This document shows positions 292 to 18,932 of a DNA stretch of 23,040 nt, piece after piece. The notes beneath the pieces were generated by a model. The model was given only the letters and a program-made list of their open reading frames with translations, had not been told where the DNA came from and made no database searches. The translations under genes were made by a program, and so were the position numbers. Within the stretch, counting starts at the first letter, position 1. Every line of letters begins with the position of its first letter. Origin of the DNA: Candidatus Wirthbacteria bacterium CG2_30_54_11 (GTDB taxonomy: Bacteria; Patescibacteriota; CG2-30-54-11); NCBI GenBank assembly GCA_001873755.1, contig MNZT01000096.1, forward strand, positions 1 to 23,040. The letters are read 5' to 3'.

Positions 292-1350
292 ATGGCCAAG
301 GTTTTGATGAAAGGCAATGAAGCGCTGGCCGAGGCTGCCATCCGGGCCGGGGTGGATGGCTTTTTTGCCTATCCGATCACTCCGCAGAATGAGATCGGGG
401 AATATATGTCATCCCATCTGACCCGCGCCGGCGGGGTTTTTGTCCAGGCGGAGAGCGAGATCGGGGCGATCAACATGGTCTACGGTGCGGCTTCGACCGG
501 CCGGAGGGCCATGACCTCATCTTCCAGTCCCGGCATCAGTCTGAAACAGGAAGGCATCTCCACTCTGTGCACGGCAGAGCTGCCCTGTGTCATCGTCAAT
601 ATGACGCGTGGCGGACCCGGCATCGGGAATATCGCTCCGGCCCAGTCTGACTATTTCCAGTCGACCAAGGGCGGTGGCCACGGCGATTACCATACTATTG
701 TTCTGGCACCATCGACTTTGCAGGAAATGGTCGATCAGGTGTACCTGGCCTTTGATCTGTCCGAGAAGTGGCGCAATCCCGTGCTCCTGCTGGGGGACGG
801 CGTCATGGGGCAGATGATGGAGCCGGTTGATTTCCGGGACCGGGAGAGACCGGAACGGCGGTCGGAGTTTGCTCCCTGGGCGCTGCGGGGGACCGAAGGC
901 GGGAGGAAACCGCGCCTGGTCAAATCTCTGTATCTGGTCGGTGACACGCTCTACGACTACAACATGAAGCAAAAAGAAAAATGGGATCGGATCATAGTCG
1001 AAGAATGCCGGCTGGAAGCCGTCGAGGTCGAGGACGCAGACTACGTGATCGCAGCATTTGGTTCGGTCGGGCGCATCGCCCGCAGTGCGCTCAAACTCGC
1101 GAGAGCGCAGGGTATCAAACTTGGCCTGGTGCGTCCCATCAGCCTCTGGCCGTTCCCCTATGAAGGGGTCAGGGCAGCGACTGCCCAGGCCAAAGGGATC
1201 CTCACCGTGGAGATGAATCTGGGCCAGATGGTGGAGGATATCCGTCTCTCGGTCGAGGGTTCTGTCCCGGTCAAGTTTTTCGGCAGTCCGGGCGGGCGCG
1301 TCCCCACCCCGGAAGAAATCGTCGCAGAGCTGAGAAAATCATTTATCTGA
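292..1350 (+). CDS. 2-oxoacid:ferredoxin oxidoreductase, alpha subunit (Kor/Vor/Por family; substrate not assignable)
   Basis: 352-aa ORF. The N-terminus MKGNEALAEAAIRAGVDGFFAYPITPQNEI and the internal GGPGIGNIAPAQSDY are typical of OFOR alpha subunits. GGAG at 282-285 lies 6 nt before the ATG. Beta and gamma subunits lie downstream. Confidence 0.9.
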   Translation: MAKVLMKGNEALAEAAIRAGVDGFFAYPITPQNEIGEYMSSHLTRAGGVFVQAESEIGAINMVYGAASTGRRAMTSSSSPGISLKQEGISTLCTAELPCVIVNMTRGGPGIGNIAPAQSDYFQSTKGGGHGDYHTIVLAPSTLQEMVDQVYLAFDLSEKWRNPVLLLGDGVMGQMMEPVDFRDRERPERRSEFAPWALRGTEGGRKPRLVKSLYLVGDTLYDYNMKQKEKWDRIIVEECRLEAVEVEDADYVIAAFGSVGRIARSALKLARAQGIKLGLVRPISLWPFPYEGVRAATAQAKGILTVEMNLGQMVEDIRLSVEGSVPVKFFGSPGGRVPTPEEIVAELRKSFI

Positions 1351-1358
1351 GATATTCC

Positions 1359-1988
1359 ATGTTTCGATCGATTCCAAAGTCGAACTGGTTCCTCCTGGTC
1401 ATCCTGGCTTTGAGCGGCAATGCCATGAGCATAGTTAATCGCCTGGATATCCCCGGAGAGATCCATCGGCTGGAAACAAGCCTGGATCGGGCCATACCGC
1501 TGGTATTGCCATTCATGATCCCATACCTCCTGTATTTTTTCTTCGTATTCGGCACAATAGGTTATATCTTTTTTCGTCATCCCGGAGTTTTTCCTGTATT
1601 CGCCTGGTCTATGATCGTGATTGGTCTGGCGACGGCGGTAATCAATGTGACTTACCAGTCCTACGCGCCGAGAGCGTTGGTGGAGGGGAGCGATATTTTT
1701 TCCATACTCCTTCGATGGCACTACGGCTTAAATCGACCCCTGACCGCGTTCCCGAGCCTGCATGTCTCCGACTCGGTCTGCGTCTCTTATTACCTGGGCC
1801 GCGTCCGAGTGCAGCAGGTCTGGCTGTGGCTGACCTGCGCCTTCCTGATCAGTATTTCGACCCTGCTCGTCAAGGAACACTATATCGCTGATGTCATCGG
1901 CGGTTTGGTATTGGGAGTAGTAGTATCTACGCTTCTGCCCAGGCTGCTGTCCGGGCGGCAGCGCGTCCGGATCGGCAGTATCCAGTAA
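1359..1988 (+). CDS. PAP2-superfamily integral membrane protein (sphingomyelin-synthase / IPC-synthase-like PAP2_C/PAP2_3 type)
   Basis: 209-aa hydrophobic ORF with about 5-6 predicted TM segments. PAP2-like motifs are NRP...PSLH (for PSGH) and [10 protein letters not shown] (HxxxD, resembling the HYTxDV motif of SMS-type enzymes). Confidence 0.65.
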
Positions 1989-2008
1989 TTGTAACATCAG
2001 GGGGCGCC

Positions 2009-2746
2009 ATGACCATACGAGCCAAGAGATCAGAGGTACTGTCCGCGGGGATTACCCATTACTGCCCGGGGTGCGGGCATGGCATCATCCACCGACTGGT
2101 GGCCGAGTCAATCGAAGAGCTTGGGATCCGTGACCGGACCATCGGGGTGGCCCCGGTCGGTTGTTCCATCCTGTGCTACAACTACCTCTTGGTTGATTTT
2201 GTTGAGGCGTTGCATGGGCGCGCACCAGCCGTGGCGACCGGAGTGAAGCGCATGGAGCCGGAAAAGGTGGTATTCACCTATCAGGGGGACGGCGACCTCA
2301 TCTCCATCGGGTCCAATGAGATCCTCCATGCGGCCAACCGGGGAGAGGATATCACGGTCATCTTCGTGAACAATGCGATTTACGGCATGACCGGAGGGCA
2401 GATGGCGCCGACCTCTATCCCTGGTCAGGTGACCACCACTTCGCCACTTGGACGCGGGAAGAATCATGAGGGCTCACCGATCCGGGTGGTTGAACTCCTG
2501 AACGCCCTGGATGCGCCGGCCTACCTCACCCGGGTCGCAGTGAATTCGCCGAAGCATGTGCTACAGGCCAAGAAGGCGATCAAGACTTCCTTTCAAGCGC
2601 AGCTGGACGGCAAAGGTTTTTCCCTGGTCGAGGTGGTGTCGAACTGCCCCACGAACTGGAAGAAGACACCCCTGGATGCCAATCAGTGGATCGAAGATGA
2701 GATGCTCAAGTATTTTCCCCTGGGCGAAGTACGTAATCGTTTGTAA
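2009..2746 (+). CDS. 2-oxoacid:ferredoxin oxidoreductase, beta subunit (TPP-binding)
   Basis: 245 aa. It has the Cys ligands YCPGCGHG and PVGCS for the [4Fe-4S] cluster and the TPP motif GDGD-x25-NN ([41 protein letters not shown]). Confidence 0.9.
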
Positions 2747-2763
2747 CGTCAAAAGGACAGCAT

Positions 2764-3306
2764 ATGAACACAATGTCTTTCCGTTTTGCGGGGTTTGGCG
2801 GGCAGGGTGTGCTGCTCATGGGCATGATGCTGACCTATGCCGGGATGGAAGAGGGCAAGCATGTTACCTGGCTCCCGTCCTATGGGGCCGAGATGCGTGG
2901 CGGTACGGCTAATTGCACGGTGGTGGTTTCGGATGATGAGGTCGCTTCCCCGGTCGCCGAATCCCCAGATGTCGTGGTCGTCATGAATGAGCCTTCGCTG
3001 GAGAAATTCGAACCGTTGGTCAGGCCGGGAGGATGGCTGTTCATCAATTCCTCGCTGGTCAAAAAGGCTGTGAAGAGGACCGATGTGCAAGTGGTTTCAA
3101 TCGATGCGACGAATATCGCCTATGAGTTGAAAAATGCCAGGACCGCCAATATGGTCATGCTGGGGGCCGTGGTCGGCAGGACCGGAACAGTCCAACTTTC
3201 TGTGGTCGAATCGTCGCTCCTCCCTGTTCTGGGTACGAGCAAGAAAGCGCTGGTAGAGATCAATATACAAGCCTTGCGTCGCGGTAGAGAGATAGCGAAA
3301 GGGTAG
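2764..3306 (+). CDS. 2-oxoacid:ferredoxin oxidoreductase, gamma subunit
   Basis: 180 aa. FAGFGGQGVLLMGMML...YGAEMRGGTANCTVVVSD is the characteristic OFOR gamma-domain signature. AAGGA lies upstream of the ATG. Confidence 0.88.
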   Translation: MNTMSFRFAGFGGQGVLLMGMMLTYAGMEEGKHVTWLPSYGAEMRGGTANCTVVVSDDEVASPVAESPDVVVVMNEPSLEKFEPLVRPGGWLFINSSLVKKAVKRTDVQVVSIDATNIAYELKNARTANMVMLGAVVGRTGTVQLSVVESSLLPVLGTSKKALVEINIQALRRGREIAKG

Positions 3307-3307
3307 C

Positions 3308-4168
3308 ATGTTTTTCCTAAGTGTTCTGGCAGGTCTCGGGGTCGCGCTGGGATGGGGAATCGCAGATTTCGCACAGAAGAAACTGGTCATGGAGAACGGG
3401 GCCTATAGCATGATCCTGCCTCTTCAGGTAGCAACGACGGCCCTGGTCGGTGGTGTATGGGTATTGTTCCGCTTTCCTGTGCAGGTTTCGTTTACCGCAT
3501 TTTGCTGGATGCTGGCGGGCACCTGCCTGCTTACTGCTGCCTGGTTCCTATTCTTTCGGGCGCTTTCGATAGGGAATGTATCGGTCCTCTGCGCGTTGTA
3601 TGCATTTTATACGGTCATCCCTTTTTTTTGGCAGACAGTGGTGGAAAAAATCCAGTTAAATATTGTACAGTTTATAGGAATGGGTGTTGTGTTAATTGCT
3701 GGAATACTGATTTCTGTGGACTCCCGGAGTCTGAAGCAGGGGTTCAAAGCATCTCTTTCCAAAGGGGTAAAAGAAATTACCGCTGCACTTGTGATGTCGG
3801 GGTTTGGTTTTTTAATGATCGATCATGCAGTTCAGGAGATCGGATGGAAGTCTGGATATATTGTTCAGCAGATGCTTTCACTACTCGAGGTAGTCGTCAT
3901 TCTGCTTCTTCTGGGAAAGTTCAGGGAGTCACGTCTACCGGTGTCCTGGGGCTGGTTTAGTACGGTGGTTTTGGCCAATATAATTGCATTTGGAAGTTTC
4001 AATGCAGGCATGGAGATCGGATATGTGAGTGTGGTGGGGATCGTCGGCACTTTTTCCGTAGCGATCACGGCGCTGCTGGCCTGGCCGCTGCTGAAGGAAC
4101 GACTCGCTTTCAATCAATATCTGGGCATCGCGTTCGGCATCGTCGGCATCATCAGTCTCAGTCTTTGA
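3308..4168 (+). CDS. DMT-superfamily (EamA-like) transporter, about 10 TM
   Basis: 286-aa highly hydrophobic ORF with two similar halves, each ending in a small-residue-rich helix (GVVLIAGILISV and GIAFGIVGIISLSL). The start lies 1 nt after the gamma-subunit stop. Confidence 0.7.
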   Translation: MFFLSVLAGLGVALGWGIADFAQKKLVMENGAYSMILPLQVATTALVGGVWVLFRFPVQVSFTAFCWMLAGTCLLTAAWFLFFRALSIGNVSVLCALYAFYTVIPFFWQTVVEKIQLNIVQFIGMGVVLIAGILISVDSRSLKQGFKASLSKGVKEITAALVMSGFGFLMIDHAVQEIGWKSGYIVQQMLSLLEVVVILLLLGKFRESRLPVSWGWFSTVVLANIIAFGSFNAGMEIGYVSVVGIVGTFSVAITALLAWPLLKERLAFNQYLGIAFGIVGIISLSL

Positions 4169-4194
4169 ATAAACTCACCAGTTACCAGTGACTA

Positions 4195-4833
4195 ATGACA
4201 AACATTCCTTCGACTGAACAGTGCTATGGACTCTGGGATACCTATCATGTTCCAGACAATGTACGCGGACATCTCTCGCTTGTGAGGGACGTGGCCTTGC
4301 TTCTTGGGTGTGAACTGCAGAAGTCAGGGCAGACAGTTTTGCTGGAGTTGACCGAAGCAGGAGCTTTACTTCATGATGTGCTCAGATTCGTGGGTACGCA
4401 TCAGATCAATCTGCGATATTTCCAAGCACCCCCGACCAAGGAGGATTTTGAAGAATGGAGACGGCTGGATCAGAAATACCCAGGACTGAATCATGCCTGG
4501 GCAGCCGGAGCAGAGCTGCGTGAACTGGGATACGACGAAGCTCTCAGCCGGGTAGTGGAACGGCATGACTATGCCAAGGTCGTTGACCCGGATGATGGTC
4601 CGACCACCTGGGAAGAAAAACTGGTTTTTTATGCGGACAAGCGGGTCCTGCACCGTGAGCTGGTTTCACTTGAGAAGCGGTTCTCCGACAGTGAGGTCCG
4701 GTATCCGGAATTCGTCAATGTGCCGGGCGAGGAATTGAAAAGGGCAGCGATATATGAGCTGGAACGGGAGATATTTTCATACGTAGCGTTTCCACCGGAG
4801 GATGTGGGGGGTATACTGCATACATCTGGTTAA
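4195..4833 (+). CDS. HD-domain metal-dependent phosphohydrolase (YqeK/COG1713-like)
   Basis: 212 aa. The H...HD...H...HD...D pattern is present (RGHLSLV, ALLHDVLR, NHAWAAG, VERHDYAK, FYADKRV). Confidence 0.7.
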   Translation: MTNIPSTEQCYGLWDTYHVPDNVRGHLSLVRDVALLLGCELQKSGQTVLLELTEAGALLHDVLRFVGTHQINLRYFQAPPTKEDFEEWRRLDQKYPGLNHAWAAGAELRELGYDEALSRVVERHDYAKVVDPDDGPTTWEEKLVFYADKRVLHRELVSLEKRFSDSEVRYPEFVNVPGEELKRAAIYELEREIFSYVAFPPEDVGGILHTSG

Positions 4834-4922: not shown

Positions 4923-5963
4923 ATGGTCGGTATCATAGGCTACGGCGCATACATCCCGAAGTATCGTATCAAGGCAGAGGAGATCGCGGCGATCTGGGGG
5001 CAGGATCCCAGGCGCATCATCGAAGGCCTTCGCATTCAGGAGAAGTCTGTGCCCGGACTGGACGAAGACAGCGCGACCATGGGTATCGAGGCCAGCCGCA
5101 ATGCACTCGCCGTGGCCGGGATCGATGCTTCGACCATAGGAGCGGTTTACAGCGGTTCCGAGTCCAAGGTCTATGCGGTCAAGCCCAATGCCACCATGAT
5201 CGGAGACGCACTTGGCATCGGCCATAAATATAAGGCGGCAGATGTCGAGTTTGCCTGCAAGGCCGGTACCGCGACCATGCAGATGGTCGTTGCCGAGGTG
5301 GAGAGCGGGATGATCGACTGCGGTTTGGCGGTTGGCATGGATACGGCACAAGGGCGACCGGGCGATGCACTTGAGTACAGCGCGGCGGCTGGCGGGGCAG
5401 CGTTCCTCATCGGCAGCGACGAAAAAAAGATCCTGGCAAAACTTGAGGCTACCTGTTCGTCCTCGTCAGACACTCCTGACTTCTGGCGCCGTCAGAAGGA
5501 GGAATATCCGGTACATCGGGAGCGCTTTTCCGGCAAACCGAGCTACGAGGCGCAGATCGCCCTGTCCGTCGGCATGCTGCTTGAGCGCTTGAAGCTCAAG
5601 CCTGCGGATTTTGACCGGGCGGTGTTCCACACGCCCAACGGGAAATTTCCCCTGGCCATCGGAAAAAAGCTGGGTTTTACCATGAAACAGATGGAGGCCG
5701 GCTACATCGTCCCGGTGGTGGGCAATACCTATTCCGGCGCTTCGCTTCTGGGACTGGCGGCGACGCTGGATGCTGCCGGTTCTGGTGAACGCATTCTGGT
5801 CGCTTCGTATGGCTCGGGCGCCGGTAGTGATGCTTTCAGCTTTGTGACCACTCCCCAGCTGAAAAAGCGCCGGGACCGGGCGCCTCAGGTCCGAAACTAT
5901 ATCGATCACAAACAGTATCTGTCCTACGGCCAATATATCAGACACACAGGACATCTGGGATGA
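4923..5963 (+). CDS. Hydroxymethylglutaryl-CoA synthase, archaeal type (about 350 aa, UPF0219 family)
   Basis: 346 aa. The N-terminus is MVGIIGYGAYIPKYRIKAEEIA. The catalytic triad context is intact by eye: GSE(80)SKVYAVKP, EFAC(112)KAGT and VFH(236)TPNGKFP. Thiolase-like and DUF35 partners lie downstream. Confidence 0.85.
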   Translation: MVGIIGYGAYIPKYRIKAEEIAAIWGQDPRRIIEGLRIQEKSVPGLDEDSATMGIEASRNALAVAGIDASTIGAVYSGSESKVYAVKPNATMIGDALGIGHKYKAADVEFACKAGTATMQMVVAEVESGMIDCGLAVGMDTAQGRPGDALEYSAAAGGAAFLIGSDEKKILAKLEATCSSSSDTPDFWRRQKEEYPVHRERFSGKPSYEAQIALSVGMLLERLKLKPADFDRAVFHTPNGKFPLAIGKKLGFTMKQMEAGYIVPVVGNTYSGASLLGLAATLDAAGSGERILVASYGSGAGSDAFSFVTTPQLKKRRDRAPQVRNYIDHKQYLSYGQYIRHTGHLG

Positions 5964-6877
5964 CCACCCGCACCCTGCCGAAACATTTCCAGCTCCTCCC
6001 GAACGAGCAGCTGGTGGAAATTGTCCACCCCCACTGGTTCGCTTTTTATCGCACCTATGCCGTCTGGGCTTTGATCATAGCTGCGGGCGTAGTGCTGTTT
6101 TCGTGCCGAGAGGTGGTGGCATCAGTATTTCCATCTTCCCATCTCGATCTCCCGTTCAGTATTATCAACGGCCTCCTTTCGACCAACGGGTCTCTTCAGA
6201 TCAGCTACGATCTGCTGTCCAGATCGGCTCTCGACGGCCTGATCCTGGTGACCGCCTGGTGGTATGTACTGATCTTGATGGGAGCGTTCGTGGCTCTGGC
6301 CAAGGTAAACGGAGGATGGATGCTCGTTTTCCTCGCGATCGGCAGTCTGAGCACTGCCGCCGGGGTGCTCACCGGCTTCCCGACCTGGACTCCACTGTTC
6401 GGAGCAGCGCTGTGTTTCGCAGGTATGGTGATGACTGACCGGTACCGCCGGTCTCACTATTTCATCATCACCGATCTCAGGCTCATTCTGTATGTAGATT
6501 TTTTCCACCTGCAGGAACGAGACCTTCTCCTGAGCAGACTGAGCGATCTCGCTATCGACCAGACGCTGGTCGGACGGCTGTTTGATTTCGGGACCTTGAT
6601 CCCGATTTCCCTTTCTGGTTTCGGCATGGGAGCAGATATGTCCATGGTGGGCGTGGGAGCGCAGGCAGGTCCGCTGTCTGTGACGGGAGCTCTGGGGACC
6701 AGTGTCGGAGTCCCTCGTGCGAGAAGCCCTCATGTATTGTTCGGGGTGCCTGATCCACATGCCGTTCATGCCATACTGGAAAAGCTGATTTATACCAATT
6801 CCGAGGTCAAGCATCTACAGACCATCACCGACGAGTTGAAGAATATGAAATTTCTAACGACAAATGAATCCAAATAG
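5960..6877 (+). CDS. Membrane protein with bacterial PH domain (bPH_2 / YdbS-YdbT-like, DUF304)
   Basis: 305 aa. It has an LLPNEQLVEIVHPHW entry motif, then about 4 TM helices, then YFIITDLRLILY...LSDLAIDQTLVGRLFDFGTLI...FGVPDPHAVHAILEKLI, typical of bPH_2. The ATGA overlap with the HMGCS stop suggests translational coupling. Confidence 0.6.
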   Translation: MTTRTLPKHFQLLPNEQLVEIVHPHWFAFYRTYAVWALIIAAGVVLFSCREVVASVFPSSHLDLPFSIINGLLSTNGSLQISYDLLSRSALDGLILVTAWWYVLILMGAFVALAKVNGGWMLVFLAIGSLSTAAGVLTGFPTWTPLFGAALCFAGMVMTDRYRRSHYFIITDLRLILYVDFFHLQERDLLLSRLSDLAIDQTLVGRLFDFGTLIPISLSGFGMGADMSMVGVGAQAGPLSVTGALGTSVGVPRARSPHVLFGVPDPHAVHAILEKLIYTNSEVKHLQTITDELKNMKFLTTNESK

Positions 6878-6906: not shown

Positions 6907-8058
6907 ATGGATGTCAGAGTAGCCGCCACCGGCGGAGTCAGATATGGAGAGCTGTGGACCCTGGGTATCGGGGATCTCATGCGCGCAGCCGCAGCAGATG
7001 TCCTGAAGAATTTTGATGGGGATATGAAGGATATCGATACGCTCGTCCTTTCGAACTGCTTTGCCGGGAGGGCTCTGGGTATCCACACCCTGATTCCCCT
7101 GGCGTACGATGAGCTTGGTTTCCGCGGGCGGATCTTTGAGGTGACCGGCTCGGATGCCACGGGCGGATTTGCCGTGCAGCGGGCAGCCATACTGATCGAG
7201 AGTGGAGTCGCGCAGCGGGTCCTGGTACTGGGGGTCGAAAAGATCGGCGATCTGCTCGCCTCTCAGGTGCAGTCGGCGCTTTCTTCCCTCCTGGGCTCGG
7301 AGCAAGTGTTCCAGGGGCAGACCCTCGCTTCTGACTATGCGCTCATGGCTCGGCAGTACATGGAAACGTACGGGGTGACACTTCGGGACCTCGCACTCAT
7401 CAGTGTGAAAAATCATGCGAACGCCTCACTCAATCCCATGGCCCAGTTTCCTTTTCCTTTGACCGTGGAGCAGGCGGCAGAAAGCCAGGAGATCGCAAGT
7501 CCGCTGAGGGCTCTGGATGCTGCCTCGATCTGTGATGGAGCTTCAGCCCTGATCCTCGAAAAGCCGGGGAAGAATTCCTCGCCGGTCAGCATCGTCGGAC
7601 TGGGCGAAGGGCGCGACCTCCCGGGGCTTCATGACCGGAAAGATCTCACCTCTCTGGCCGCGACCCGGGAAGCGGCACAAATGGCGTACGAGGCCGCAGG
7701 GGTGAGTCCACAGGAGATCGATGTCGCGGAAGTACATGATGTCTATTCCATAGCCGAGCTGATGGCTATCGAGGATCTTGGTTTTGCCAGACCCGGTCAG
7801 GCCAAAACCTGGGTGCGCAAAGGCAGGACGGCCCTCGGGGGCGATCTGCCGGTCAACCCTTCGGGCGGATTGAAAGCGTGCGGTCATGCACCCGGTGCCA
7901 CTGGCGTCAGGCAGGCGGCAGAGATAGCTGTCCAACTAAGCGCTTCAGCCGGCAAGCGGCAGGTGGCAGACGCTTCTGTCGGTCTCAGTCACTCAGTCGG
8001 TGGCAATGGCAGTCAGTGTGCGGTCACCATATTTCGTACTATAGCCATACGAGGATAA
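6907..8058 (+). CDS. Thiolase-superfamily protein (SCP-x / archaeal acetoacetyl-CoA thiolase-like) lacking the nucleophilic Cys (Asp83)
   Basis: 383 aa. LGVEKIGD, NPSGGLKACGHAPGATG and HSVGGNGSQCAVTIF match thiolase C-terminal signatures. The expected xxACASGG segment reads TGSD(83)ATGG (GAT at 7153-7155). Confidence 0.8.
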   Translation: MDVRVAATGGVRYGELWTLGIGDLMRAAAADVLKNFDGDMKDIDTLVLSNCFAGRALGIHTLIPLAYDELGFRGRIFEVTGSDATGGFAVQRAAILIESGVAQRVLVLGVEKIGDLLASQVQSALSSLLGSEQVFQGQTLASDYALMARQYMETYGVTLRDLALISVKNHANASLNPMAQFPFPLTVEQAAESQEIASPLRALDAASICDGASALILEKPGKNSSPVSIVGLGEGRDLPGLHDRKDLTSLAATREAAQMAYEAAGVSPQEIDVAEVHDVYSIAELMAIEDLGFARPGQAKTWVRKGRTALGGDLPVNPSGGLKACGHAPGATGVRQAAEIAVQLSASAGKRQVADASVGLSHSVGGNGSQCAVTIFRTIAIRG

Positions 8059-8060
8059 CC

Positions 8061-8519
8061 ATGAGAGATAATGTCCCTGATTCCTGGCGTCGTCAGAGCG
8101 ATCATGTGATCCCGGTCTCGAGTCACTGCCGCCACTGCCGGGAGACGTTCATCCACGAACGGCATGCCTGTCCCCGTTGCGGGCGGGGCACTATGACGGT
8201 CAAGCCTGCGAGTACGGCGGGGGTCGTCGAATCCTGGACCGAGATTTTTGATCCGCCGGAGGAATTTCACCGGATGCGGCCGTATATCATAGGACTCATC
8301 CGGCTTGATGACGGGGCCCGGCTTTCAGCTCCGATCGTTGACGTCGAGAGCGGGATGCTCGTGAAGGGCATGAGAGTGGAAGCCGTGGTGAGAAAAGTGT
8401 ATGTGCAGGGACAGGATGGTCTGATAGAATATGGGACAAAATATCGGCCTTCCATGAAAGTTATCAAAGAATCAAAGCCGCCCTCTGGGGCGAGCCTCGC
8501 TAAAAGCGGGAAGCAATAA
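8061..8519 (+). CDS. DUF35 protein (Zn-ribbon plus OB-fold; thiolase/HMGCS scaffold family)
   Basis: 152 aa. The Zn-ribbon is C-x2-C-x11-C-x2-C (CRHCRETFIHERHACPRCG), followed by an OB-fold-like YIIGLIRLDDGARLSAPIVDV...GMRVEAV. The ATG lies 2 nt after the thiolase stop, with GAGGA upstream. Confidence 0.8.
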   Translation: MRDNVPDSWRRQSDHVIPVSSHCRHCRETFIHERHACPRCGRGTMTVKPASTAGVVESWTEIFDPPEEFHRMRPYIIGLIRLDDGARLSAPIVDVESGMLVKGMRVEAVVRKVYVQGQDGLIEYGTKYRPSMKVIKESKPPSGASLAKSGKQ

Positions 8520-8523
8520 ATCA

Positions 8524-9402
8524 ATGGTCAAAAAGACGGATACGAAGATCATATCGATCAAAAAGGCGGTCTCCTGGATCAAGGACGGGATGACGGTTGC
8601 TCTGGGTGAATTTTCCTACCAGAATCTGCCGATGGAAGTGGTCAGGGAGATCATCCGTACACGGAAAAAGGATCTGACGATCATCTCCGGCCCTACTTCC
8701 GGTCTGGCCACTGATATGCTGATTTCCGCCGGATGCGTGAGTCGGGTGGTGACCGCCGGGGTCGGGTTTGAGGATGTTGCCGGAATCGCCCCGGGTTTCC
8801 GCTCGGCCTGTGAGAGGGGGACGCTAGAGGTCTGGGAGTGTGATGAGTGCATGTGGCAGGCAGGTCTGGAGGCCGCTGCCCGGGGACAGCCGTTCGCACT
8901 CTGGCAGGGGGGCATCGGCTCTGATATTCCTTCCTTGAATCCTTCTATTCATCTCGTCGTGGTCAGCCCCGCAGGCGAGGTAAAACGGGTCAGATCCCTT
9001 GGGAATGCGGCCCGGAGGGCCAAAGCTACCGGGGGCCAGATCTTTCTTCAGATACCGCCGATAGTACCGGATATCACGTTCATCCACGCGGCTACTGCCG
9101 ATGAGCTCGGGTTTGTCCAATATCCACAGAAGCGGTATCTGGGCAGAGTATTCAATGAAAAACTGCTCAGCGAAGCGACCCGGGGGCCGGTGATCGCGAC
9201 GGTAGAGAAGATAGTTTCTCATGAGCAGATCATGAAGCATCCGGAGCTGACGGTCATTCGGAACGCCTGGGTGGCCCAGGCGCCCCGGGGCGCCTGGCCG
9301 GGAGGCTGCAACGGGGTCTATCCGCCTGACCTGAAGGCGTACCGGGCGTATGTGCGCAGTGGCGGTGATGTACATTTATTCCTGGGAGAGGGAACAGTAT
9401 GA
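8524..9402 (+). CDS. Family-I CoA-transferase alpha-subunit-like protein (GctA/AibA-like), pair 1
   Basis: 292 aa. IISIKKAVSWIKDGMTVALGEFSYQNLPMEVVREIIRTRKKDLTIIS is the typical N-terminal fold of glutaconate/3-oxoacid CoA-transferase A subunits. Confidence 0.75.
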   Translation: MVKKTDTKIISIKKAVSWIKDGMTVALGEFSYQNLPMEVVREIIRTRKKDLTIISGPTSGLATDMLISAGCVSRVVTAGVGFEDVAGIAPGFRSACERGTLEVWECDECMWQAGLEAAARGQPFALWQGGIGSDIPSLNPSIHLVVVSPAGEVKRVRSLGNAARRAKATGGQIFLQIPPIVPDITFIHAATADELGFVQYPQKRYLGRVFNEKLLSEATRGPVIATVEKIVSHEQIMKHPELTVIRNAWVAQAPRGAWPGGCNGVYPPDLKAYRAYVRSGGDVHLFLGEGTV

Positions 9403-10043
9403 CGCAGGTTTCCATGATCAAGGTCAACAAGAAGGCCAAAAAAGTATACCGGCAGGAAGTTCTCCATCGCGGACTTTTTGGGGTGCTTCTGGTCGTGGCG
9501 CTGGCCGTCGGGGTTGTCGCGGGCGGGTTTTTCTTTCCTGCGGTTCGCACGGCCAGCAGCCTGGAGCCGGATACTCCTGGAGACAGGTCCGCGATATCCG
9601 CGGCAGAACGATCTGCCGATCAGCAGAGCGATGAAACTGAAGCCACTTTTTTGTCCGTCGATGCTTCTCCGCCTCCGGCGGCAGAGGCTCCGGTTCCTGC
9701 CCCGGTAGAAGAACAGCCGGCCACCACGATCACTGAAACTACCGACCCGGCTGATATCAGCATGATCATTCTCAACGGTTCCGGGATCGACGGTGAAGCC
9801 GGCAGATTTGCCGAATACGCAGAAGGTAAAGGTGTATCCGTGGTCGGAACCGCGAACGCCAGGCAGTGGGACCATGAAGAGACAGAGATCTATTTTTCGG
9901 AAGATAATGCGGAAAAAGCAAAACTGGTCATGGAGCTGCTGGGCAAGCAATATCCCTGGATCATGTATACAGAAGCGCTCGACGGCAGGGATGCCGACAT
10001 AGTGATTGTCCTTGGTACTACTTCTCCTTTGCAGGGTTCCTGA
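9399..10043 (+). CDS. Membrane-anchored LytR_C-domain protein
   Basis: 214 aa. It has an N-terminal basic stretch and one TM helix (GLFGVLLVVALAVGVVAGGFFF), a Pro/Ala/Glu-rich linker, and a C-terminal ISMIILNGSGIDGEAGRFAEYAEGKGVSVV...DADIVIVLG (LytR_C signature). ATGA overlaps the upstream stop and TGATG overlaps the downstream start. Confidence 0.7.
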   Translation: MTQVSMIKVNKKAKKVYRQEVLHRGLFGVLLVVALAVGVVAGGFFFPAVRTASSLEPDTPGDRSAISAAERSADQQSDETEATFLSVDASPPPAAEAPVPAPVEEQPATTITETTDPADISMIILNGSGIDGEAGRFAEYAEGKGVSVVGTANARQWDHEETEIYFSEDNAEKAKLVMELLGKQYPWIMYTEALDGRDADIVIVLGTTSPLQGS

Positions 10044-10849
10044 TGAGCAAGAATTATTCTACAGCGCAACTGATGACCTGCGTGATCGCCCGGGATCTCT
10101 CTGACAGCGACCGGGTGGCTTTTGGCCTGCATGCCGGTATTGGCCTGGGTGCAGCTCTGCTCGCCCAGAAGCTGCACGCTCCGCATCTGCAGATACGGCA
10201 TGGTCTGCACGAATCCCTGAAGCCTGCTCTCAGCCCCTCGGCGTGGACGGCAGAGAAAAGGACGGAGAGCCGGGTATCCTATTTTGAATCTCATGATGAA
10301 ATGCTGCTCTGGGGCAACCCGACCGGTAGTCAGACCTTTTCCAGCGTCTTTTTCATCAGTGGTCTGCAGATCGACCGGTACGGCGCGACCAATCTGGTGG
10401 GCATCAGGAACCAAGCTTCGAAACCACACATCTGGCTGGTCCGGGGACCCGGCAGCATCGGTACTCCGTCGGCAGCCTGGTTCTGTGCCAAATACTATCT
10501 GTTCTCTTTTTGCCACGATCTCCGCACATTTGTGCCCAAGGTAGACGTAGTGTCTGTGCCCGGTACTGATCGTCTGCGCGCTCTGGGTTACCCAAAGAAA
10601 TTTCCCCGTCTGTGCATCACTCCCCTGGGGGTTTTCGGCTGGGACAATGCCGAAGGAACCATGAAGATCATATCGCTTCATCCCGGAGTTACGATTGACG
10701 AAGTTCAGGAACGGACAGGATTTGAGCTCGTCCGTCCGGATCGGGTGAGAACCACAGAGATTCCTTCATCGGCTGAGCAGAAGGCACTTAAGGAGATTGA
10801 TCCCAAAGGTGAGATTTTTAAGCTCGATAGCACAATGCTGAGGGATTGA
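10043..10849 (+). CDS. Family-I CoA-transferase beta-subunit-like protein (GctB/AibB-like), pair 1
   Basis: 268 aa. STAQLMTCVIARDLSDSDRVAFGLHAGIGLGAALLAQKLHAP, FFISGLQIDRYGATNL and VDVVSVPG align by eye with GctB. The canonical Glu register (Ala of the 'AP' dipeptide +8) is Gly54, with Glu57 three residues later. Confidence 0.7.
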   Translation: MSKNYSTAQLMTCVIARDLSDSDRVAFGLHAGIGLGAALLAQKLHAPHLQIRHGLHESLKPALSPSAWTAEKRTESRVSYFESHDEMLLWGNPTGSQTFSSVFFISGLQIDRYGATNLVGIRNQASKPHIWLVRGPGSIGTPSAAWFCAKYYLFSFCHDLRTFVPKVDVVSVPGTDRLRALGYPKKFPRLCITPLGVFGWDNAEGTMKIISLHPGVTIDEVQERTGFELVRPDRVRTTEIPSSAEQKALKEIDPKGEIFKLDSTMLRD

Positions 10850-10851
10850 CC

Positions 10852-11601
10852 ATGACTACCATCATCACCTTGAAAGATATAGCTGATCTGATACCGGCCG
10901 GATCCCGTCTGATATGCGGTGGTTTTCAGGCCAACCGGGCTCCGGTCGGTCTCGTGCAGGCTTTGCTCGACGGCCCACCCGGTCAGTTCGCGCTTACCGC
11001 ACTGCCCAACCCGGTGCCGACCGACATGCTGCTTCGTGGTGACAGATTGTCTCTGCTTGATACAAGTTTCAATGGACTGGAGCTTTCGGACGGCTTCCAC
11101 TCCTCAGCCGGCTTTCGCCACGCCATAGAATGTACGAACATCGGTTGGAAAGAGAGCGATGTGTACGAGATCATCCAGGGAATGCGTGCGGCGGCCATGG
11201 GGCTGCCCTTCATACCGGCACCTGAGATAGCGGGTTCTCAGTATACGGAGAGTCAATATCACCGTATTCATCGCGTGGTCGACCCGTTCCATGGCGGGGA
11301 AAGTGTTTTTGCGGTTCCACCCTTGAACCCTGACGTGGCGCTTCTCCATGTGCAAAAGGCTGACCGTAACGGCAACCTCTGGATCGAGGATCCGCTCTAT
11401 GATGAGATCATTCTGCAGGCGAGCCGTCTGACGATCGTGAGCTGCGAAGAACTTGTCGACAGTATCGACCGGCCAACCATCAGTGGACTGTTCGTGGATC
11501 ATGTTCTGGCGATCAAAAACGGGGCGGCGCCGACCGGTTGCCGGGGGTATTACGGACCGGATGAGAAACGCCTGCAAGAGATCCTGGGAGGTACGCGATG
11601 A
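10852..11601 (+). CDS. Family-I CoA-transferase alpha-subunit-like protein (GctA/AibA-like), pair 2
   Basis: 249 aa from the ATG at 10852; the ORF track uses TTG at 10846, which overlaps the upstream stop. ITLKDIADLIPAGSRLICGGFQANRAPVGLVQALL and ALLHVQKADRNGNL are typical alpha-subunit segments. Confidence 0.75.
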   Translation: MTTIITLKDIADLIPAGSRLICGGFQANRAPVGLVQALLDGPPGQFALTALPNPVPTDMLLRGDRLSLLDTSFNGLELSDGFHSSAGFRHAIECTNIGWKESDVYEIIQGMRAAAMGLPFIPAPEIAGSQYTESQYHRIHRVVDPFHGGESVFAVPPLNPDVALLHVQKADRNGNLWIEDPLYDEIILQASRLTIVSCEELVDSIDRPTISGLFVDHVLAIKNGAAPTGCRGYYGPDEKRLQEILGGTR

Positions 11602-12314
11602 ATCCTCGAGACAAGATGATCTCGTATCTGGCCGGTTTGATCCGGGATGGCGACCTCGTCTCCACCGGGGTGGCTTCGCTCATCCCTTTTCTGGCGGTCG
11701 CTCTGGCGAAGCGGACATACGCTCCTGCGAGCAGGTTCATCACCTGCAGCGGAGCGGTGGATCCGGTTTTTGAGCAGGCAGGCCTGTCCTCTGACGACAG
11801 CTCCACTTTTTCGTCCTGGTCTTCCTTCGTTCCTTTGCCTTCACTCTTTGACCTCGGGGTCCGTGGCGGCATCGATGTCATGTTCTTTTCCGGGGCACAG
11901 ATCGACCAGAGTGGCAGGATCAACCTCACTTCGATAGGTGATTATCTCAAACCCAAGGTCAAGTTGCCAGGTCCGGCTGGCTCCACAGTGATGCTCCGCC
12001 GGGTGCAGCGGCCGGTCCTGTTCACGCTGCAGCACACGACGCGGACGCTGGTTGCGGAGGTTGATTTCGTGACCGCAGACGGCTGCGCGACCAGAGACAG
12101 CATCGAGCTGGTGACGGAGCTCGGTGTGCTGACGCTTCGGAAGGATGCTCCGGCAGTGATGACCGCCCGGTTCAGTGATCTGTCAGAACAGGAGATACAG
12201 GAAAGGACCGCTTTCCCTCTTGTTTTTCAGAACCGAGAGGCGAGGGAGCAGGATATTCACACCAATACTGCTATACTGAACGAGCTGGACCCTGAGGGCC
12301 GCAGGTATCATTGA
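11598..12314 (+). CDS. Family-I CoA-transferase beta-subunit-like protein (GctB/AibB-like), pair 2, with Cys in place of the catalytic Glu
   Basis: 238 aa. MISYLAGLIRDGDLVSTGVASLIPFLAVALAKRTYAPASRFITC(50)SGAVD corresponds to (V/S)E(S/N)G in bona fide transferases. FFSGAQIDQSGRINLTSIGDY is the conserved beta-subunit segment. ATGA overlaps the upstream stop. Confidence 0.75.
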   Translation: MNPRDKMISYLAGLIRDGDLVSTGVASLIPFLAVALAKRTYAPASRFITCSGAVDPVFEQAGLSSDDSSTFSSWSSFVPLPSLFDLGVRGGIDVMFFSGAQIDQSGRINLTSIGDYLKPKVKLPGPAGSTVMLRRVQRPVLFTLQHTTRTLVAEVDFVTADGCATRDSIELVTELGVLTLRKDAPAVMTARFSDLSEQEIQERTAFPLVFQNREAREQDIHTNTAILNELDPEGRRYH

Positions 12315-12343
12315 GGACAAGTTTCCTAGAGGGGAGTCGTACG

Positions 12344-13894
12344 ATGAGATCAACGGTGAAACCATTCAAAAAGATTCTGATCATCAACCGCGGCGAAATC
12401 GCTGTGCGGGCCATCCGGGCCTGCCGGGAGCTCGGGATCTCGGTCGGGGTCATCTATAGCCGCGCTGATGTTCACTCCCTGCCGGTCAAGCTGGCGGATG
12501 AGGCTTTTTTCATGGAGGGCGAGAGCGACATCAGCGCCTATCTCGACCAGCAGAAGATCGTCGATGTCGCCAGGACTCATCGGTATGATGCGGTCTATCC
12601 CGGGTATGGCTTTCTGGCTGAGAATTCTTCTTTTGCTGCTCTGTGTGCGGAGCGGGGGATCGCCTTCATCGGACCGTCTGCTGCGGTGCTTCATTCACTG
12701 GGAGACAAAGTCGAGGCTAAACGAATCGCCCGTAAAGTCGGTGCGCCGCTCGTGCCAGGAGAGGACAGGGAGGTTCCCGATGACAAGGATGCCAGGGATA
12801 GCGCCCGGAAGATCGGATATCCGATTGTCGTAAAAGCCTCCGGCGGCGGTGGTGGGCGCGGGATTCGAGTGGTGATGAAGGAGGCTTTTCTTCTGAAAAG
12901 CGTGAAGGAAGCCCAGAGAGAAGCCAAACTGGCTTTTCATAATCCCGGCGTCTATATCGAAAAATTCATCGAAAATCCGCGTCATGTGGAATTCCAAATT
13001 CTGGGTGATCGCTACGGCAACGTCATCCATCTGGGCGAACGTGACTGCTCGGTTCAGCGCCGTCACCAGAAGCTGATCGAGGAAGCACCGTCTACCGTAC
13101 TGACCGAGGAAATGCGGCAGAAGATAGGAGCGTATGCCATCGCCATGGCTCGTGAAGTCGGACTGGTCGGCGTAGCCACGGTGGAATTCCTCGTGGATCG
13201 TCAGCAGAATTACTTTTTCATCGAGGTCAATCCGCGTATCCAGGTGGAGCACGGAGTGACCGAACTCATCTGCGGCATCGATCTGGTGAAGTGGCAGATC
13301 AGGGTCGCGCAGGGCGAGAAGCTTTCCCTTCGTCAGAAGGATATCGTGCTCCGAGGCCACGCCATCGAGTGCCGCATCAATTCAGAAGATCCCTTATCCG
13401 AATTTGCGGTCTCCACGGGCGTGATCGAACAGTACCTGCCGCCCGGAGGGACAGGTGTTCGGGTCTGCGGCGGGATCTTTGTCGGTCAGGAAGTATCCTC
13501 CCAGTTCGATACGCTCCTTTTGAAACTGATGGTCTGGGACGAAACGAGAGCAAAGGCGATCGAACGCATGAGGCGAGCCCTGGGAGAATGCATCATCGAA
13601 GGGGTCAAGACGACGCTGCCGTTCCATCGGACGGTCATGGACAACCGGAATTTTCAGAAAGGCGACGTGGATACGGATTTCATCCCCAAGAACAAGATCA
13701 GTCTCCAGATCAGGAAGAACGCCGAAAAGATGAGGCAGCCCAGCCTGCTGAACGACCAGGTCGAATCCATCCGGTATCGGGAGATCGCGCTCATCGCCGC
13801 GTCGGTCTACAAAAACCTGAAACGAGAAATGGGTACCGCGGGCAATGGCGGGTCGAACGCCTGGGTCACCTCGGCGCGTAAGGATCAAATGTAG
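12344..13894 (+). CDS. accC: Biotin carboxylase (ATP-grasp) subunit of an acyl-CoA carboxylase, long archaeal-like form
   Basis: 516 aa from the ATG at 12344, with GGGGAG 7 nt upstream; the track's TTG at 12311 is less likely. FKKILIINRGEIAVRAIRACRELGI, GYPIVVKASGGGGGRGIRVV and FIEVNPRIQVEHGVTE are canonical biotin-carboxylase motifs. A roughly 65-aa C-terminal extension lies beyond the usual AccC end. Confidence 0.9.
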   Translation: MRSTVKPFKKILIINRGEIAVRAIRACRELGISVGVIYSRADVHSLPVKLADEAFFMEGESDISAYLDQQKIVDVARTHRYDAVYPGYGFLAENSSFAALCAERGIAFIGPSAAVLHSLGDKVEAKRIARKVGAPLVPGEDREVPDDKDARDSARKIGYPIVVKASGGGGGRGIRVVMKEAFLLKSVKEAQREAKLAFHNPGVYIEKFIENPRHVEFQILGDRYGNVIHLGERDCSVQRRHQKLIEEAPSTVLTEEMRQKIGAYAIAMAREVGLVGVATVEFLVDRQQNYFFIEVNPRIQVEHGVTELICGIDLVKWQIRVAQGEKLSLRQKDIVLRGHAIECRINSEDPLSEFAVSTGVIEQYLPPGGTGVRVCGGIFVGQEVSSQFDTLLLKLMVWDETRAKAIERMRRALGECIIEGVKTTLPFHRTVMDNRNFQKGDVDTDFIPKNKISLQIRKNAEKMRQPSLLNDQVESIRYREIALIAASVYKNLKREMGTAGNGGSNAWVTSARKDQM

Positions 13895-13901
13895 GTACAG
13901 C

Positions 13902-14543
13902 ATGACCACTGAAGCCAAGTCAAATCGTCGGATCGCGATTCTCGGTGGAGCTTACAATCCTCCGACTATTGCCTATGAAAAAATTGTGAGAGCTGTGCTC
14001 CAGAAGGATGCGGCGCAGGAAGTGTGGCTGATGCCCTATCAGGAGCGCGCATTTGGTAAATTCATGGCCGCCACCGCACAGCAGCGGTTCCGCATGGCTG
14101 AGCTCCTGGCTGGTCAGATCGGCGACCGGGTCAGGGCGTCTGAGGCCGAGATCGCAAGACAAGGGAAAAGCTACACCATCGATACGGTGCGTGAGCTGAA
14201 GAGACTGTATCCGGACTGCGAGTTCTGCTGGATCATCGGTACTGACCTCCTCTATGAGCTTTCGGACTGGAAAGATATCGAGGCACTTACCACGGAAGTC
14301 ACTTTTCTGGGCGTGCTCAGGCCGGGCTACCCGGTCAATGCACAGCTGGTGGACCGTTACCGCGTGCAGCTGCTGCTGGGACCCCGCCTCATGCCGGACG
14401 TATCCGCTTCTCTCGTGCGCCAGAGACTCGCTGCAGGCAAGAACATGCAGGGGCTGGTTCCCGAAGTGATTGAGCGTTATATTGAAGCAGAAAGACTGTA
14501 TCAACCCCAGACAGATCCTACCAGTGTTCAAAAGGAGGAGTGA
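13902..14543 (+). CDS. NadD-like nucleotidyltransferase (nicotinate-nucleotide adenylyltransferase family) with a degenerate (H/T)xGH motif
   Basis: 213 aa. RIAILGGAYNPPTIAYEKI aligns with the NadD motif GGTFDPPHxGH, giving HxGH -> TIAY. SYTIDTV, IIGTDLLYELSDW and the ISxTxxR-like VSASLVRQR are retained. Confidence 0.65.
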   Translation: MTTEAKSNRRIAILGGAYNPPTIAYEKIVRAVLQKDAAQEVWLMPYQERAFGKFMAATAQQRFRMAELLAGQIGDRVRASEAEIARQGKSYTIDTVRELKRLYPDCEFCWIIGTDLLYELSDWKDIEALTTEVTFLGVLRPGYPVNAQLVDRYRVQLLLGPRLMPDVSASLVRQRLAAGKNMQGLVPEVIERYIEAERLYQPQTDPTSVQKEE

Positions 14544-18904: not shown

Positions 18905-18932
18905 GGTCGGTATCCTCGAAAGAGGGGAAAGA

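Follow-up and report, generated by a model that had tools for sequence, protein, structure and literature searches.

We report that the thiolase-like gene of a bacterial operon for HMG-CoA synthase encodes Asp at the position of the nucleophilic Cys. The operon lies in a window (the whole stretch of DNA analysed, 23,040 nucleotides) from Candidatus Wirthbacteria bacterium CG2_30_54_11 (assembly GCA_001873755.1, contig MNZT01000096.1, positions 1 to 23,040), in which the genes for 3-hydroxy-3-methylglutaryl-CoA (HMG-CoA) synthase (HMGCS), a thiolase-like protein of 383 amino acids (6907..8058, forward strand) and a DUF35 protein stand together. The thiolase-like open reading frame (ORF) evolves under purifying selection and encodes an intact subunit of thiolase fold that belongs to an HMGCS/thiolase/DUF35 complex. 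Both catalytic Cys residues of the parent enzyme are replaced–the nucleophile by Asp83 (codon GAT, 7153..7155) and the Cys of the HDCF motif by Val279. Comparison with other genomes indicates that Asp is a recurrent, selected state and not a peculiarity of the window gene. In archaea, and in many bacteria of the candidate phyla radiation (CPR), the mevalonate pathway is accepted to begin with the thiolase/HMGCS/DUF35 complex, whose working is ascribed to a Cys-dependent thiolase that passes acetoacetyl-CoA straight on to HMGCS.

Asp83 and the active site of the thiolase-like protein

Pfam recognizes the protein as a thiolase (Thiolase_C_1, E = 5.7e-43, plus Thiolase_C and Thiolase_N). In phmmer searches of PDB chains it matches 7yvy_A, the P. 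furiosus thiolase (E = 4.6e-65), and 6esq_A (E = 6.8e-64); 6esq/6et9 is the thiolase/HMGCS/DUF35 complex of M. thermolithotrophicus, and its chain A the acetoacetyl-CoA thiolase. In both of these best alignments the segment EVTGSDATGG of the query falls on VEAACASG ('evtgsDatggfavq' on 'veaaCasgslalr' of 6esq_A; the aligned stretch of 7yvy_A is 'ieaaCasggaavq'), and counting along the printed alignment puts Asp83 on Cys85 of 6esq_A, which PMC6392133 reports as the subunit's active Cys. An AlphaFold model made with 51 homologues has a predicted local distance difference test (pLDDT) score of 94.8. In it a strand (residues 75-79) is followed by a helix (82-99) with Asp83 at its N-terminus, which is the nucleophile elbow, and the top Foldseek match of the model is again 6esq_A (template modelling (TM) score 0.96, root-mean-square deviation (rmsd) 1.3 Å). 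A sequence-only reading of this DNA had already proposed an Asp at the nucleophile position; the two PDB alignments, the model and the Foldseek match all agree with it, and in the PDB alignments the SG, GVEK and GHAPGATG (His327) landmarks lie where that reading had placed them. Among the results that would refute its proposal it had named an alignment of a Cys, for instance Cys51 (codon TGC, 7057..7059), to the nucleophile position. This residue takes the place of the invariant Met of the GNM motif, in a column that is Met in 149 of 150 Cys-type sequences, so Cys51 is ruled out as the aligned nucleophile.

The other catalytic motifs are a mixture of kept and changed residues. The motif HDVY (His277-Asp278-Val279-Tyr280, 7735..7746) corresponds to HDCF of the Cys-type enzymes, with Val in place of the acid/base Cys and Tyr in place of Phe. 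His277 aligns to His284 of the complex thiolase, and with H284A in this HDxF motif the archaeal complex no longer makes HMG-CoA (PMC12960953). In the segment NPSGGLKACGH (7855..7887) Asn317 and His327 are kept, the latter being the His of the GHx motif within GHAPGATG, and GHP has become GHA (Ala328). The protein falls short of the curated NCBIfam thiolase cut-offs, scoring 300 bits against 600 for the equivalog NF053570 and 358.6 against 420 for the subfamily NF004720. With both catalytic Cys residues gone, the Asp83 protein cannot form the acetyl-S-enzyme intermediate of the ping-pong thiolase mechanism at the canonical site; the sequence-only reading had likewise pointed out that this mechanism needs the Cys. 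Two points were absent from it, namely the loss of the HDCF Cys and the recurrence of Asp in at least three lineages.

The upstream gene (4923..5963, forward strand) encodes an HMGCS of archaeal type that exactly matches protein record OIP95995.1 and clears the NCBIfam equivalog thresholds (for NF003274, 496.6 bits where 244 are required). It aligns to 6esq_I with an E-value of 1.9e-114, and E80/C112/H236/N268 fall on E82/C114/H238/N270, so that the HMGCS Glu, Cys and His whose retention had been noted earlier prove to be part of a full tetrad; the retention of the thiolase His327, noted with them, also holds. Between the HMGCS and thiolase-like genes is a gene for a predicted membrane protein of 305 amino acids with a weak bPH_2 match in Pfam (5960..6877, forward strand), whose start overlaps the HMGCS stop; in archaeal and CPR operons the HMGCS and thiolase genes abut or overlap, with no ORF in between. 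Downstream, the gene for a DUF35 protein of 152 amino acids with a zinc ribbon and an OB fold (8061..8519, forward strand) starts 3 nt past the thiolase-like stop codon. Pfam finds OB_ChsH2_C in it (E = 6.3e-14) and zf-ChsH2 below threshold (E = 0.0058, 16.8 bits, cut-off 23.2), and a CxxC...CxxC ribbon is visible in the translation. The thiolase-like gene thus has the position expected of a complex thiolase, with HMGCS upstream and DUF35 downstream and one extra membrane ORF before it. By its fold, similarity and operon position the protein is a derivative of the archaeal-type acetoacetyl-CoA thiolase (ACAT) of the HMGCS complex, but one that lacks the defining Cys.

The Asp codon is not an error of a single assembly. 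Locus L003, from the independent assembly GCA_964406175.1, has the same order of HMGCS, membrane protein, thiolase-like and DUF35 genes, with 80% amino acid identity in the thiolase-like protein; its motif is EVTGSDAAGG, its Asp codon is also GAT, and there are synonymous differences in the neighboring codons. The sequence-only reading had thought a base-call error unlikely and had suggested looking for Asp in orthologs, and L003 bears it out on both counts, as do all nine representatives of the clade described below. By the Nei-Gojobori method, the ratio of nonsynonymous to synonymous divergence (dN/dS) between the window and L003 is 0.084 for the thiolase-like gene, 0.043 for HMGCS, 0.14 for DUF35 and 0.088 for the membrane protein; these values are rough, with dS at 1.5-2.6 across the four genes (1.8 for the thiolase-like gene), near saturation. 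The shared GAT codon, the low dN/dS, the full-length ORF and the high model confidence rule out a sequencing or assembly artefact or a decaying pseudogene, a reading in whose favor there is nothing except that the source is a metagenome-assembled genome (MAG). Since Asp is also present in complete genomes of A. fulgidus isolates, we regard it as extremely improbable.

Recurrence of Asp and rates of evolution

Asp-type proteins are not confined to the Wirthbacteria. Among the 120 database proteins closest to the window protein, the nucleophile column is Asp in 40 and Cys in 79, and one fragment does not cover it. The 79 Cys-type homologs have HDCF in 77 cases and GHP in every case. Apart from the Wirthbacteria pair (the window protein and P0001, which read HDVY and HDIY and both have GHA), the 39 Asp-type homologs have HDSF (37) or HDAF (2), and GHA in 37; N317 and H327 are invariant in these 39, and P328A occurs in 37 of them as compared with none of the 79 Cys-type proteins. 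Across Asp-type proteins, then, the HDCF Cys is almost always lost in step with the nucleophile Cys. For example, in the complete genome of A. fulgidus (CP006577) the Asp-type protein P0111 reads RVEAADASGG / HDSF / GHAV, and its gene lies between those for HMGCS and DUF35 and overlaps the HMGCS gene.

A scan of species-representative genomes gave at least 80 loci, nearly all of them HMGCS-thiolase-DUF35 operons, with no Wirthbacteria genome among the matches listed. Among the matches listed, 67 of the 84 tabulated sequences are Cys/HDCF/GHP, every methanogen-lineage locus is Cys-type, and Asp-type operons occur in Archaeoglobales, in the uncultured archaea L044 and L070 (HDVF/GHAI), in the Thermoplasmatota L030 and L060, and in L053, a MAG labelled Halobacteriales. 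The HMGCS keeps its E-C-H-N tetrad in all Asp-type operons examined. One further locus, L079 (4994-6161, a Thermoplasmata MAG), has Gly at the nucleophile position (EAAGASGG) together with HDNY and GQPV, so that its GHx His is also gone. It groups with the Asp-type loci L030 and L060, and it could be a decayed copy or a GGY intermediate on the path from TGY to GAY.

We made bootstrapped neighbor-joining (NJ) distance trees with the motif columns removed (100 replicates). The Asp-type proteins form an Archaeoglobi-type clade (100%), two Thermoplasmatota-type clades (74% and 100%) and the Wirthbacteria pair (100%), which in the first NJ analysis is nested in a 51-taxon clade of bacterial and CPR Cys-type proteins (98%). 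No replicate (0/100) joins any two of the Asp clades, which, with the position of the Wirthbacteria pair inside a Cys-type clade, rules out a single common origin of all Asp-type proteins. Cys has thus given way to Asp independently at least three times. Each replacement of TGY by GAY takes two substitutions, and HMGCS-linked thiolases almost never have a residue reachable in one step (Ser, Gly, Tyr, Arg, Phe). The independent Asp lineages also have further changes in common–M113I/V, F140L, S206A, P207S and P328A–at positions where at least 95% of 150 Cys-type sequences agree (85 columns in all). Most Asp-type proteins have F140L, S206A and the change of GHP to GHA, and the archaeal ones mostly keep Met51 and Ser209.

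An exhaustive search of 1.84 billion cluster representatives returned 8,628 relatives, from the best 150 of which (P0124-P0273) we counted residues. The nucleophile column is Cys in 87, Ser in 16, Asp in 14, Pro in 6, Gly in 6, Glu in 4, Asn in 3, Phe in 2 and Ala in 1, with a gap in 11, so that 38% of the alignable sequences among these 150 lack the Cys. Glu-type members exist in the subfamily, one of them reading RVESGEASG / HDSF / GHAI. Loss of the Cys is thus common in the broader DUF35-associated family, and most of the Cys-less types appear to be uncharacterized.

The window protein and P0001 fall among nine representatives, clustered at 50% identity, that form an all-Asp clade with 83% bootstrap; P0125 and P0126 are closest to the window protein (82%). 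Asp83 and Asn317 are present in 9/9 members. At the x of HDxF they have Val, Ile, Leu or Thr; Tyr takes the place of His277 in two members (P0131 and P0156, with YDVF and YDIV) and Asn that of His327 in one. An intact HMGCS lies upstream in all seven members with a readable flank (the window, L003, L084, L085, L087, L088 and L089/L090), the contig of P0127 ending before the HMGCS position, and DUF35 lies downstream in all eight members looked up; P0147 is outside both counts. L084 and L085 repeat the gene order of the window, with homologs of the membrane protein in the same slot (L084 898-1944, L085 237-1163, and L003 1549-2472). L087 reads HMGCS-thiolase(Asp)-DUF35-SDR-MaoC-SDR-acyl-CoA dehydrogenase-ETF beta/alpha, where SDR is a short-chain dehydrogenase/reductase and ETF an electron-transfer flavoprotein, and L088 reads SDR-HMGCS-thiolase(Asp)-DUF35-MaoC. 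We propose a putative Asp-type clade of HMGCS partners, recognizable by Asp at the nucleophile position, a non-Cys residue at the x of HDxF and an adjoining intact HMGCS and DUF35, into which the window protein fits. In this bacterial clade the HMGCS partners mostly read GSESKV directly after the catalytic Glu (HMGCS residues 80-85, window 5160-5165; L003, L087 and L089), and L088 reads GSESPV. Every other HMGCS examined has GSESHP, whether its partner is Cys-type or archaeal Asp-type, and GSESKV may reflect co-variation across the subunit interface or at the shared CoA site.

The bacterial and archaeal Asp-type proteins differ in their rates of evolution. Between pairs of Cys-type operons, thiolase identity tracks HMGCS identity almost one to one; for example, pairs with an HMGCS identity of 0.90-0.95 have a thiolase identity of 0.938 ± 0.018, with a minimum of 0.916. 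Three archaeal Asp-type pairs behave similarly (HMGCS 0.880 and thiolase 0.923; 0.776 and 0.775; 0.663 and 0.657). In the comparison of the window with L003, however, the identities are 0.910 for HMGCS and 0.796 for the thiolase, and with L088 they are 0.577 and 0.365. The thiolase-like protein of the window clade thus evolves about 2.3 times faster than its HMGCS, and because the excess is seen in a recent pair (window and L003), it reflects a lasting condition rather than a single episode in the past. The window protein has changed at 20 of the 85 near-invariant columns, including E80T, S85T, N363S and Q59I, as compared with 5-10 in archaeal Asp-type proteins and a median of 0 (maximum 9) in Cys-type proteins. 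These comparisons indicate that constraint is relaxed in the bacterial Asp clade of the window but not in the archaeal Asp-type proteins.

Possible functions of the Asp-type subunit

The reading that we prefer, tentatively and at somewhat below an even chance, is that the window protein has no thiolytic role and serves an active HMGCS as a structural, CoA-binding partner. The Asp-type subunit would be retained above all for its share in the architecture of the complex and in CoA binding, the intact HMGCS would perform the only C-C bond formation, and acetoacetyl-CoA would come from other enzymes, not from two acetyl-CoA molecules condensed in the Asp-type subunit. Asp83 would be a carboxylate stand-in for the thiolate: at the nucleophile elbow it would satisfy the oxyanion-hole environment, His327 and the helix dipole, and it might bar the acyl arm from the dead pocket. 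We prefer this reading mainly because of the steady rate excess of the window clade over HMGCS. It also draws on the intact tetrad of the HMGCS partner, on the relaxed constraint (the 20 changed columns, and the replacements of His277 by Tyr in two members and of His327 by Asn in one), and on the solved archaeal complex, in which CoA is bound at the interface of all three proteins (6ESQ, PMC6392133) and single subunits, HMGCS included, are insoluble or inactive on their own (PMC12960953). The SDR, MaoC and acyl-CoA dehydrogenase/ETF genes beside the triads of the relatives L087 and L088 could make acetoacetyl-CoA from butyryl-CoA or crotonyl-CoA without a thiolase. The taxonomic pattern, with Cys-type loci in methanogen lineages and Asp-type loci in Archaeoglobi and Thermoplasmatota, fits a structural role.

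Several observations weigh against this preference, and most of them point instead to a subunit that is still an enzyme, in which Asp83 has replaced the thiolate as acyl acceptor or general base; we see this as the main, if doubtful, alternative. Asp is invariant in the window clade (9/9) and was gained independently at least three times through two base changes, with no bootstrap replicate joining the Asp clades; this suggests selection for Asp as such rather than a simple loss of Cys. His277, Asp278, Asn317 and His327 are kept in nearly all Asp-type sequences, and the replacements of His by Tyr or Asn would preserve function in an enolate-stabilizing site; the Tyr of the two clade members is also like the catalytic Tyr of the aldolases Ltp2 and Sal. 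The convergent changes M113I/V, F140L, S206A and P328A near the active site, towards smaller residues, suggest a remodelled and not an abandoned pocket. The archaeal Asp-type thiolases show no rate acceleration at all, their rate relative to HMGCS being that of catalytic Cys-type enzymes, and that of A. fulgidus is the HMGCS partner in an operon with overlapping genes. No source of acetoacetyl-CoA is evident within the window, where the CoA-transferase-like subunit B1 (described below) appears to be without its catalytic Glu. There is also a precedent for an oxygen nucleophile: haloarchaeal DUF35-dependent thiolases (PhaA/BktB) with a 'Ser-His-His' set are reported to be active (PMC7137286), and so the Cys is not absolutely required in the family. 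As an acyl acceptor, Asp83 would form an acetyl-aspartyl mixed anhydride, as in CoA-transferases, which would be attacked by an acetyl-CoA enolate held by His327 and Asn317; as a general base it would drive the condensation or cleavage of a (hydroxy)acyl-CoA by a non-covalent reaction of aldol or Claisen type, much as in Ltp2 and Sal, with HMG-CoA-type substrates as candidates. Against both versions stand the steady 2.3-fold excess divergence of the window clade and the many changed invariant residues near its active site. A thiolase has a single shared CoA site, which makes a non-covalent condensation of two thioesters hard to picture; a mixed anhydride would be labile, more so at the growth temperatures of Archaeoglobus; and we found no biochemical precedent for an Asp-type thiolase in the searchable literature. 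The narrower claim that Asp-type thiolases are competent in Claisen condensation, with the carboxylate replacing the thiolate through either an acetyl-aspartyl anhydride or general-base catalysis, seems to us unlikely.

Two other enzymatic readings are much less probable. If Cys51 or Cys209 (codon 7531..7533, in place of the Ser/Thr that precedes DGA) reached the active site and carried the acetyl group, a thiol-dependent thiolase would be retained by way of a relocated nucleophile. These Cys residues stand in columns otherwise occupied by Met (149/150) and Ser/Thr, and they recur in 5/9 and 6/9 members of the all-Asp clade. Residue 51 follows strand 45-49, which on the topology of the model should neighbor strand 75-79; in PhlC, His56, which is 32 residues before Cys88, lines the active site (PMC6392133), and Cys51 is likewise 32 residues before Asp83, a coincidence of spacing only and not of a query-PhlC alignment. 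But neither Cys is conserved even within the clade, where residue 51 may also be Thr, Asn or Ala and residue 209 Pro or Ser, and the archaeal Asp-type proteins mostly have Met51 and Ser209, so we think this very unlikely. We are about as sceptical of a decarboxylase acting on malonyl-CoA or a related carboxy-acyl-CoA, like the KSQ ketosynthases (in which Cys is replaced by Gln) and the SCP2-thiolase-like protein (SLP) of T. brucei. Such an enzyme would keep the enolate-stabilizing His327 and Asn317 and lose the acyl-accepting Cys, as is seen here, and it might feed a decarboxylative route to acetoacetyl-CoA together with the biotin carboxylase (accC, 12311-13894) and carboxyltransferase (14540-16075) genes, which lie 4-8 kb downstream in the same gene string as BioY. 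T. brucei SLP decarboxylates malonyl-CoA, very slowly according to work cited in PMC12329534. However, the operons of A. fulgidus and other Asp-type organisms have no carboxylase neighbors, the carboxyltransferase is mmdA/pccB-like and may serve branched-chain or propionyl-CoA metabolism, and a carboxylate at the nucleophile position would be expected to repel that of malonyl-CoA.

We found no description of an Asp-type HMGCS-partner thiolase in the searchable literature, outside which some key primary papers lie, so the term 'undescribed' is provisional; Cys-less relatives are already known in ST0096 (PDB 4YZO, Ser) and the haloarchaeal 'Ser-His-His' thiolases. Automatic annotation labels Asp-type proteins acetyl-CoA acetyltransferase. 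Either HMGCS is fed otherwise, with a dead thiolase as its obligate scaffold, or carboxylate-based C-C chemistry takes place in a thiolase fold, and either alternative alters the reconstruction of the pathway for Asp-type genomes, whose organisms may start the mevalonate pathway by a non-textbook route. If Asp is catalytic, acetoacetyl-CoA would be made, or an HMG-type CoA ester cleaved or formed, without the help of cysteine; this chemistry would have arisen at least three times, and it would be at work in the essential mevalonate operons of Archaeoglobus, some Thermoplasmatota and the Wirthbacteria-related clade. The convergent package (Cys to Asp, loss of the HDCF Cys, GHP to GHA, F140L and S206A) is a natural experiment in active-site evolution. 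The window protein itself may be a relaxed scaffold; the wider pattern is one of convergent change from Cys to Asp in an essential operon, including that of a culturable archaeon, A. fulgidus.

Neighboring genes and comparison with known systems

The DUF35 gene is followed by genes of the glutaconate-CoA-transferase family, all on the forward strand. The alpha-like subunit A1 (8524..9402) has a Pfam CoA_trans match (E = 3.2e-19) and the PDB relatives 5mzw_A, 6con_A and 1poi_A, and the beta-like subunit B1 (10043..10849) matches 6con_B (E = 1e-12) and 1poi_B (E = 4.5e-11). Both have orthologs in L085 (55% identity for A1, at the same place, and 60% for B1), and A1 is co-conserved with the Asp-type triad. 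The A1 and B1 genes are split by a small, unrelated gene for a LytR_C-domain protein with an N-terminal hydrophobic stretch (9399-10043, forward strand); the corresponding slot of the syntenic L085 holds a MazG-like gene (3924-4331). A second pair of the same family (10846-11601 and 11598-12314) matches 5mzw_A (E = 1.9e-46) and 5mzw_D (E = 5.2e-37). We take 5mzw to be AibA/AibB of M. xanthus, a 3-methylglutaconyl-CoA decarboxylase whose operon presumably also has an HMGCS. The idea that A1 and B1 are a CoA-transferase supplying acetoacetyl-CoA is weakened by the alignment of the catalytic Glu of GctB to Arg in B1 ('vESGl' in GctB, 'iRHGl' in the query) and by their best structural relatives, which are non-transferases of IpdAB and 5mzw type.

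Upstream of the operon are genes for subunits of a 2-oxoacid:ferredoxin oxidoreductase (292-3306, forward strand), the alpha subunit being of the VorB subfamily (520 bits, where the cut-off is 399) and followed by beta and gamma; a gene for a PAP2-family phosphatase (1359-1988) stands between those for alpha and beta. Beyond the second transferase-family pair is a string of forward-strand genes (12311-16075 and 16511-17095) for the accC-like biotin carboxylase (527 amino acids, TTG start), a nadD-like adenylyltransferase that overlaps the 3' end of the accC-like gene by about 50 nt, the mmdA/pccB-like carboxyltransferase, and BioY; we recognized no separate gene for a biotin-carrier protein in the string. 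The two transferase-family pairs, the VorB-like oxidoreductase and the acyl-CoA carboxylase genes together suggest an HMG-CoA/isovaleryl-CoA (leucine-related) module. Towards the end of the window a gene for a SpoIIIAA-like AAA ATPase with a C-terminal PTPase-like domain (17058-18377) adjoins four ORFs that have no Pfam match at E ≤ 0.001: 18933-20486 (reverse strand, 517 amino acids), 20542-22227 (forward, 561), 18383-18970 (reverse, 195) and 22519-22995 (reverse, 158).

Among known systems, the closest is the thiolase of the archaeal complex, reportedly described by Voegeli et al. in 2018 for M. thermolithotrophicus (PDB 6ESQ/6ET9). The window protein has the same fold, 36-40% full-length identity, the same HMGCS/DUF35 neighborhood, and the same His of HDxF, Asn of NPSGG and His of GHx. 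It differs in having Asp83 for Cys85, HDVY for HDCF and GHA for GHP, as well as in its 20 changed invariant columns, its scores below the NCBIfam cut-offs and the inserted membrane-protein gene. The uncharacterized Asp-type proteins of Archaeoglobi (A. fulgidus P0111) and Thermoplasmatota resemble it in the Asp at the nucleophile position, the lost HDCF Cys, F140L, S206A and M113V/I, in the intact HMGCS and DUF35 that flank the gene, and, in Archaeoglobi, in GHA; they are set apart by their separate origin, by keeping E80, S85, N363 and Met51, and by a normal rate of thiolase relative to HMGCS evolution.

The sequence-only reading had likened the protein to Ltp2, an analogy that did not hold up. 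Ltp2, Sal and SLP (6OK1, 9MYR, 5AB4-7) also have an SCP2-thiolase-like fold without a nucleophilic Cys, and Ltp2 and Sal, unlike SLP, are complexed with a DUF35 domain. These aldolases, however, are defined by a catalytic Tyr in a YD[H/C][F/Y] motif that replaces the His of HDxF, and the nucleophile position of Sal is Gly (PMC12329534); the window protein has His277 and Asp83. The second catalytic residue is Tyr344 in Ltp2 and Cys304 in Sal, the latter at the x of HDxF, where the window protein has Val279. Their DUF35 is the C-terminal domain of a MaoC-type hydratase (ChsH2/Shy), whereas that of the window is a stand-alone protein of 152 amino acids, and Pfam and profile scans found no MaoC gene in the window. 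The presence of His277 instead of Tyr and the weaker similarity (E = 8e-25 to Ltp2, 6ok1, as against 6.8e-64 to 6esq_A) rule out membership of the Ltp2/Sal group. The two distant clade members with Tyr (YDVF and YDIV) leave some chance for an aldolase-like reading.

Other thiolase relatives share one or another part of the pattern. SCP2-type thiolases have an acid/base Cys in the HDCF loop, where the window protein has Val279. ST0096 of Sulfolobus tokodaii (4YZO) belongs to the same subfamily (E = 2.5e-55) and has a non-Cys residue, Ser, in the nucleophile column, and the alpha subunits of haloarchaeal PhaA/BktB need an OB-fold (DUF35-type) subunit and are reported to be active without the Cys-His-Cys set; in both cases the residue is Ser and not Asp, and neither is an HMGCS partner. 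The bacterial Friedel-Crafts acylases PhlC/MucB plus PhlA/MucA (5M3K, 9VBO) are tripartite, descend from the archaeal-type triad and have one subunit disabled, as we propose for the window complex. The roles are reversed in PhlABC/MucABC: there the HMGCS-like subunit is without E-C-H-N and the thiolase-like subunit keeps its Cys and is without HDxF, whereas in the window the HMGCS is intact and it is the thiolase-like subunit that has lost the Cys and kept the His of HDxF.

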